Shown: piece after piece, positions 39,412 to 39,610 of the stretch
Position numbering within the stretch: the first letter of the stretch is position 1
Layout of the letters: every line of letters starts with the position of its first letter
Origin: a virus
Taxonomy: Duplodnaviria > Heunggongvirae > Uroviricota > Caudoviricetes
Reading direction: 5' to 3' (one strand)
IMG/VR virus record: IMGVR_UViG_3300017917_003521
Length of the DNA: 64,000 nt
The notes under the pieces: generated by a model
What the model saw: the letters and a program-made list of their open reading frames with translations, nothing else
What the model was told of the DNA's origin: nothing
The model's database searches: none
Program-made: the position numbers and the translations under genes

Positions 39412-39563
39412 AGAGTTTTCGTAGTGGTTAACTCTTAATACTCCTAACAGGAGTGGTCTACATAAGTAGGGTGGATACCGAACTCCACACAAGTTTTCGT
39501 AGTGGTTAACTTCCTCTTAAACAGAGGGGTCTGTCAATGACAGTGTGGGTACCTCAAACCCAC
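39412..39563 (+). ncRNA. Two tandem 4-hairpin structured RNA units
   Basis: Identical 20-mer AGTTTTCGTAGTGGTTAACT at 39414 and 39492; stems covary between copies. Confidence 0.7.
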
Positions 39564-39577
39564 TCTAATTTCAAAAA

Positions 39578-39610
39578 AATCCCACTAAAAAATTAGTGGG
39601 ATTTTTATTT
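39578..39610 (+). terminator. Intrinsic terminator closing the ncRNA unit
   Basis: AATCCCACTAA-AAA-ATTAGTGGGATT plus U-tract. Confidence 0.75.

Follow-up and report, generated by a model that had tools for sequence, protein, structure and literature searches.

The tRNA cluster of phage T4 encodes, among its tRNAs, two small stable RNAs of unknown function, species 1 and species 2, which are processed together with the tRNAs. tRNA punctuation is also found in MALAT1/mascRNA and in mitochondrial transcripts, both of them eukaryotic or organellar cases. The GOLLD RNA (Rfam RF02032) assembles into a 14-mer nanocage (Kretsch et al. 2025, PMC12286853), and for the GOLLD env-38 RNA of the cryo-EM work the described origin is a marine metagenome, where it lies downstream of tRNA-Met. 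GOLLD is among the largest and most elaborate bacterial and phage RNAs, and the structure of its cage has been solved. Here we analyse two tandem repeats in a 64,000-nt stretch of DNA from a Caudoviricetes virus (IMG/VR record IMGVR_UViG_3300017917_003521), referred to below as the window. Judging from the sequence, the repeats are almost certainly copies of an uncatalogued structured RNA family with units of about 78 nt. The element is a new RNA family within an already known niche, the phage tRNA islands with GOLLD.

The two repeats share an identical 20-nt head, at 39414-39433 and 39492-39511, and an 18-mer taken from this head has exactly two occurrences in the window, spaced by 78 nt, against a chance expectation of 0.05. 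Both repeats fold into four hairpins (H1 to H4) on the + strand. Unit 1 (39412-39489, about 78 nt) comprises H1 (39412-17/39430-35, with a 12-nt loop at 39418-29), H2 (39440-44/39450-54), H3 (39458-61/39466-69) and H4 (39471-75/39484-88), and its pseudoknot strands are GGU at 39455-57 and the partner ACC at 39477-79. Unit 2 (39490-39568) contains H1 (39491-95/39508-12, loop 39496-39507), H2 (39513-17/39523-27), H3 (39531-35/39539-43, followed by the junction U at 39544) and H4 (39545-49/39559-63, with a tail that runs to 39568), the pseudoknot strands being GGU at 39528-30 and ACC at 39551-53. The minimum-energy fold of 39405-39612 consists of four plus four hairpins and a terminator, with an energy of -66.9 kcal/mol as compared with -43.1 +/- 4.1 kcal/mol in shuffled sequences (z = -5.9; 0/200 shuffles equal it). 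A preliminary description of this DNA had reported tandem 20-nt heads 78 nt apart, which are indeed present, and had quoted eight stems with changed sequences that still pair, all of which we found. The 12-nt loop, the GGT junction and the TACC loop that it listed as conserved are so in both units and throughout the family.

Using an exact 17-mer of H1 we retrieved 16 IMG/VR loci, 15 of which contain the four-hairpin unit. A covariance model, R1, was built from 19 units of the family to which both window units belong, unit 1 being included in the seed (row win_u1 of alignment A1). This model and exact 17-mer and 20-mer scans, metagenomes included, yielded 102 copies (71 distinct) at 85 loci of uncultured huge phages. 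In the window, unit 2 scores 87.5 bits on R1 (E = 7e-15), and cmsearch reports this unit alone (39489-39569), probably since the two units overlap by a few bases. The carriers are one clade of huge lake phages with Bacteroidota-type promoters. The GenBank carrier is an uncultured phage of 634,780 bp (LR745206.1) with one copy of the element, and blastn against GenBank phages gave no carrier besides it. In the five genomes estimated to be at least 91% complete, the element occupies a single locus per genome (5/5). A 20-mer scan of 185,579 prokaryote species genomes produced one match, in a GC-rich coding region of a Thiobacillus MAG; we rejected it as a family member and judge it a chance match because it lies inside a coding region and contains H1 with the rest of the unit absent, which leaves no genuine copy in this set. 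Twenty-one new loci obtained with an H1-independent pattern were also discarded as chance, none of them scoring on the model.

Searches of the units against Rfam 15 gave no family at gathering scores, nor at E up to 10 in the window, and three other element loci matched no riboswitch or ribozyme family at E up to 1. We found no description of this RNA in the published literature, and the supplements to the GOLLD cryo-EM work are without the motif. The view that the repeats form a novel structured non-coding RNA with compensatory changes is supported, and the covariance search of Rfam returned no matching family. The window units carry the set of features that marks out the new family: the invariant H1, the GGUCU junction, an H4 loop of the form UACY-N-AA, four covarying stems and the pseudoknot. 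Partial copies occur naturally as well. Locus L055 (element-oriented coordinates) has a partial copy at ~2945-3005, just upstream of the unit at 3007, plus a partial unit at 3088, and unit 1 of locus L088, at ~1010-1070, is a natural copy without H2. With one copy devoid of H1, one reduced to H1 and H2 and one devoid of H2, the fold thereby has a set of deletion variants made by nature.

Covariation supports all four stems predicted from the sequences. Double changes affect 11/20 predicted pairs in a MAFFT alignment to which no structure had been fitted, and 14/22 pairs have changed on both sides in the model alignment, where 97.6% of the cells pair as compared with 38-55% when the partners are slid by 1-3 columns. 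The suggestion that GGU and ACC form a pseudoknot is likewise backed by covariation: the variable pair was counted 51 times as G-C, 9 times as G-U, 8 times as A-U and 0 times as A-C (naive hypergeometric ~3e-6, a value that ignores the relatedness of the copies). Loci L094 and L056 differ at three positions in total, two of which are the pseudoknot partners, and the highly divergent L104 also has A-U at this pair. A mutual-information scan pointed to a candidate tertiary pair between the H3/H4 junction base and the final base of the H4 loop (G-C 46, U-A 11, U-C 8, G-A 0). The G-U pairs fit the + strand reading only, which is the tRNA strand. Taken together, the pairs describe an H-type pseudoknot. 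Three nucleotides that follow H2 pair with ACY of the H4 loop, the first loop of the pseudoknot takes up H3 as an insert, and the H4 loop is closed by a conserved A-rich stretch, which forms the third loop. H1 is a hairpin of 5-6 bp whose stem and 12-nt loop are almost invariant. H2 is variable and dispensable, being the hairpin that L088 unit 1 is missing, and both H2 and H3 have loops that vary in sequence and in length across the family (4-8 nt and 3-14 nt, respectively).

Highly conserved junction nucleotides around an H-type pseudoknot with an A-rich third loop could also belong to a ligand-binding aptamer or to a small self-cleaving ribozyme, with the pseudoknot as its core, a reading that the existence of tandem copies, and the position of the array ~20 nt ahead of a small membrane-peptide gene in some relatives, would suit. 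We nevertheless hold it to be quite unlikely, considering that the downstream gene is inconsistent, that there is no expression platform, that in other loci no alternative pairing between the window terminator and the unit is conserved, and that no known riboswitch or ribozyme family appears even at E up to 10. The terminator was considered as a riboswitch expression platform and rejected, the CCCAC/GTGGG that it shares with H4 of unit 2 being absent in other loci. As for the membrane-peptide gene, it lies ~20 nt after the last unit in L007, L016, L043, L045, L047, L070, L077 and L095, where it encodes a conserved single-pass membrane peptide of 32-36 aa with the consensus M.SEIYAAIATPVVLLS.LAI..YKEKKK; in the window its position is taken by the terminator.

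Twenty nucleotides of H1 are identical in 69 of the 71 distinct copies. This invariance is not an artefact of retrieval, because the real copies recovered with a pattern made from H3 and H4 alone all had the exact H1, as did 12/12 element loci fetched through a neighbouring protein. The H1 loop resembles the stretch from U8 to the D-loop of the neighbouring tRNA-Glu-like RNAs and is also like D-loop stretches in the window tRNAs, a likeness that rests on about 10 nt. Elsewhere in the window the loop has no complements, only same-strand D-loop-like look-alikes. The earlier proposal of a tRNA mimic is partly supported by this likeness of the loop, but the unit as a whole is not tRNA-like. Over 39412-39568 the tRNA model (RF00005, threshold 29 bits) gave no match even at E up to 10 and ARAGORN detected no tRNA, global alignment of the unit to the 37 window tRNAs gave scores of ~0, and H2 and H3 are without a 7-nt anticodon loop of conserved layout. 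Since the loops of H2 and H3 vary, these hairpins are not anticodon arms.

The two units had been described as having their own transcription unit, which our analysis does not support. Directly upstream of unit 1 we scored no + strand sigma-70-like site and found no clade-type -7 motif, and the stretch taken for a promoter spacer forms an RNA hairpin that is conserved, so a promoter of their own ahead of unit 1 was rejected. The clade motif, TAnnTTTGTAT, of the Bacteroidota -7 type, is instead located on the + strand at 39175-39185, before a tRNA-Tyr-like gene, and is the likely start of a transcript comprising a leader, this gene and both units. It occurs 10 times in the window as compared with 3.7 expected; the sites at 6534, 15431 and 26052 precede tRNA arrays beginning at 6600, 15724 and 26355, respectively, and those at 39175 and 39631 stand ahead of the RNA island and of a CYTH gene. 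We read the region as one transcript made up of the leader, the tRNA-Tyr-like gene, a spacer hairpin, the two units and the terminator, because the motif lies at 39175, none is found directly before unit 1, and the presumed promoter stretch is a hairpin that has been kept.

A structured leader of ~75 nt follows the motif on its 3' side (39190-39265), with an outer 7-bp helix CGGTGAG/GTCACCG; it is also found in L007, L045, L047, L095, L103 and L106 and has no Rfam match. The tRNA-Tyr-like gene (39266-39351, + strand) is of class II and has an 8-nt anticodon loop with an additional C before GUA. It scores 23.9 bits on the Rfam tRNA model (cut-off 29), is missed by ARAGORN in the window and matches jumbo-phage tRNA-Tyr; in L043, L047 and L095 ARAGORN assigns it a four-base 'cgta' anticodon. 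This gene with its 8-nt loop has been kept across phages of the clade (L043, L047, L095, L007, L045 and L130, in the last at 1449-1536), and it is likely to be the upstream processing mark of the array. Between it and unit 1 lies the spacer hairpin (39359-39395, + strand; fold z = -3.7), whose stem L007, L047 and L103 preserve through compensatory changes or shifts of register. In L043 (2251-2335) and L106 (556-641), both in element-oriented coordinates, a tRNA-Met(CAT) with an inserted extra arm, ~85 nt in total, stands between the spacer hairpin and the units. The terminator that had been noted 3' of the units is reproduced in the minimum-energy fold. It is intrinsic (39573-39609, + strand), with a 10-bp stem (39579-88/39593-602), and the A-run on its 5' side together with the T-run on its 3' side means that it could act bidirectionally. 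A simple terminator scan did not list it, the call resting on the fold; it resembles the terminator-type sRNA SpF36 with 37.4 bits, a score below the cut-off.

All loci represent the same syntenic site in one phage clade, with the order NUDIX, AAA_33 kinase, small ORFs, RNA island, CYTH, a 192-aa hydrolase-like gene, a 111-aa gene and a ClpB-like gene; because of this single clade and single locus, the associations with context described below are not independent observations. The CYTH-domain gene of the window (39681-40169, + strand; Pfam CYTH E = 8e-4, below the cut-off; PHROG 6660 E = 2e-15) is a syntenic neighbour with its own promoter motif at 39631, separate from the RNA. It was rejected as a functional partner and is regarded as a neighbour because the gene and the element occur apart, L119 and L123 having CYTH but no element, and L009/L121 the element but no CYTH. 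L119 and L123 are more distant syntenic relatives in which the RNA island is absent. Strict co-variation with the element was seen for none of the neighbouring genes.

Of the 56 non-redundant informative loci, 31 (~55%) have the 3' domain of GOLLD upstream of the element on the same strand, with its end 50-110 nt away. In 10 the unit directly follows tRNA-Met(CAT), arrays of 2-3 units without GOLLD account for 11, the window included, and the remaining four are arranged in other ways. Typically, tRNA-Met comes first, then GOLLD and a tRNA-like RNA, then the element, which is followed by a second tRNA-like RNA, a terminator and CYTH. In LR745206.1 the element is also behind GOLLD, in the region around 419.8-421.6 kb, and the Global Ocean Sampling contigs L094 (AACY020169428.1) and L099 (AACY020178275.1) show tRNA-Met, GOLLD, a mini tRNA-like RNA and the element. 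By analogy, the native env-38 GOLLD transcript may continue into the element. In the loci that have both RNAs the element lies outside the GOLLD match.

This proximity to GOLLD, seen in the 31/56 loci and again in LR745206.1, L094 and L099, is what would be expected if the element were an accessory RNA of the nanocage, a partner tethered to it or released with it, such as cargo, a factor for assembly or gating, or a docking module. Moreover, in some of the loci 5-9 nt of the H1 loop are complementary to a GOLLD segment ~50 nt into the Rfam model. The GOLLD segment varies, however, at positions that are fixed in H1, hence the pairing is not maintained, and we rejected this partial complementarity as a conserved pairing. 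Two element-bearing genomes, estimated to be 97% and 94% complete, gave no GOLLD anywhere in a search that detected 5/5 positive controls, and the window's own island is likewise without it, no match to GOLLD (RF02032, 3' domain threshold 150 bits) having been found in the window. An accessory role in the nanocage consequently seems unlikely to us.

The start of the element is almost always 1-2 nt after the 3' end of a tRNA or tRNA-like gene without encoded CCA, and in ~30 loci the 17-mer begins 4-5 nt past the tRNA end given by ARAGORN; 3' of the unit there is either a tRNA-like gene within 7-10 nt or a terminator. The flanking tRNA-like RNAs are nearest to tRNA-Glu(UUC), with acceptor and T arms kept and anticodon loops of 6 or 8 nt (UUUUCA or UAUUCA), and these non-decoding RNAs are candidates for tRNA punctuation or for decoys. 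Examples are found in L005 (851-925 and 1008-1118), L003 (873-949), L002 (5746-5794) and many further loci; variants have two hairpins inserted in the D-loop or are reduced to a two-arm mini form. Used as a query against E. coli genomes, the flanking tRNA-like RNA had no match.

A start 1-2 nt past a CCA-less tRNA or tRNA-like end, together with the compact fold, would also suit a cis-acting 3' trailer, in which a nuclease-resistant pseudoknot protects the upstream tRNA or GOLLD, or directs its processing, with no function of its own. For such a generic block there would be no need to keep 20 nucleotides of H1 fixed as the stems drift, the 2-3 copies in arrays do not adjoin a tRNA end, and in many loci a tRNA-like gene comes after the element; we therefore regard a trailer as rather unlikely. 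The preliminary description had also listed an antitoxin-mimic repeat among its candidates, and a pseudoknotted RNA in tandem direct repeats, with a terminator behind them, does recall a type III antitoxin array cut by its cognate toxin. This origin appears highly improbable, given that most phages have a single copy, with one exact head in 40/60 deduplicated loci, that the units measure 78 nt and not ~36 nt and have diverged stems, and that they lie between tRNAs. No ToxN, AbiQ or CptN-like gene and no defence-system match is adjacent, and PADLOC toxin models did not match the downstream CYTH, hydrolase-like, 111-aa or ClpB-like genes.

The reading to which we give the greatest weight, at about an even chance, is that the element is a discrete stable RNA cut from a tRNA-type transcript and acting in trans through its invariant, D-loop-like hairpin. 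The element would be made within a polycistronic tRNA-type transcript in which flanking tRNAs and non-decoding tRNA-like RNAs serve as punctuation. RNase P and RNase Z read the acceptor/T-arm helix, and it is because of this that we propose release by the flanking tRNA-like RNAs. The RNase Z cut would fall behind the upstream tRNA, 1-2 nt ahead of H1, and the RNase P cut ahead of the downstream tRNA-like gene, or else a terminator would end the RNA. The expected product is a discrete RNA of ~80 nt or, in the window, a two-unit RNA. In tandem arrays there is no tRNA between the units, so that monomers would need another nuclease, or the array would act as one RNA. The same punctuation would also free GOLLD with defined ends. 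Excision of the element from the tRNA transcript as a discrete RNA is the step that we consider probable. The conservation pattern suggests that the pseudoknot is a stable scaffold and that the invariant H1 loop is the site that a conserved partner recognises, most probably a host or phage tRNA-binding protein, the element acting in trans as a decoy or cofactor. That it works through the binding of a tRNA-recognising factor by H1 is a possibility to which we give somewhat less than an even chance.

A broader and rather doubtful proposal is that the element, the non-decoding tRNA-Glu-like RNAs and GOLLD make up a multi-RNA phage system, where tRNA-shaped punctuation would free a small pseudoknotted effector. 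With its invariant hairpin this effector would either dock on the GOLLD cage or capture a tRNA-recognising factor of the host, for example a synthetase, a modification enzyme or a defence nuclease. If such a system were true, it would offer the first functional handle for GOLLD-type RNA islands. A sharply conserved small RNA behind GOLLD, outlasting the loss of GOLLD and bracketed by non-decoding tRNA look-alikes, represents a testable lead to the function of the island. In addition, a new RNA fold with strong covariation is suited to Rfam, to structure determination and to pull-downs.

Several known systems can be compared with the element. ToxI-type repeats of the type III antitoxins (ToxIN, CptIN, TenpIN) are also tandem pseudoknotted RNAs ending in a terminator, but they are near-identical repeats of ~34-45 nt, whereas the ~78-nt units are identical in the 20-nt head only, have no toxin gene directly downstream, occur as single copies as a rule and lie in a tRNA context. 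Species 1 and 2 of T4 are likewise small RNAs among phage tRNA genes; they belong to another phage lineage and host, and are not known to be related to the element in sequence or fold. With MALAT1/mascRNA and mitochondrial punctuation the element shares the arrangement of non-decoding tRNA shapes that flank another RNA and are possible RNase P and RNase Z sites, although for the phage element the processing is suggested by gene spacing. Compared with tRNA (RF00005) and the flanking tRNA-Glu-like RNAs, the element is tRNA-sized, lies on the tRNA strand and is probably co-transcribed with them; its H1 loop is like the U8-to-D-loop stretch, and H4, with a stem of 5-6 bp and a loop of 7-9 nt, is T-arm-like. 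Unlike a tRNA, it has no acceptor stem, variable H2 and H3 loops, no score on the tRNA model and, in place of a D-loop/T-loop elbow, a tertiary fold given by the junction-to-loop pseudoknot. GOLLD, finally, differs in its size (~800 nt as compared with ~78 nt) and has no sequence or structure match to the element, which persists in near-complete genomes without it; both RNAs nevertheless share the phage tRNA islands, the same strand and, often, a position downstream of tRNA-Met, and they adjoin each other in more than half of the loci.
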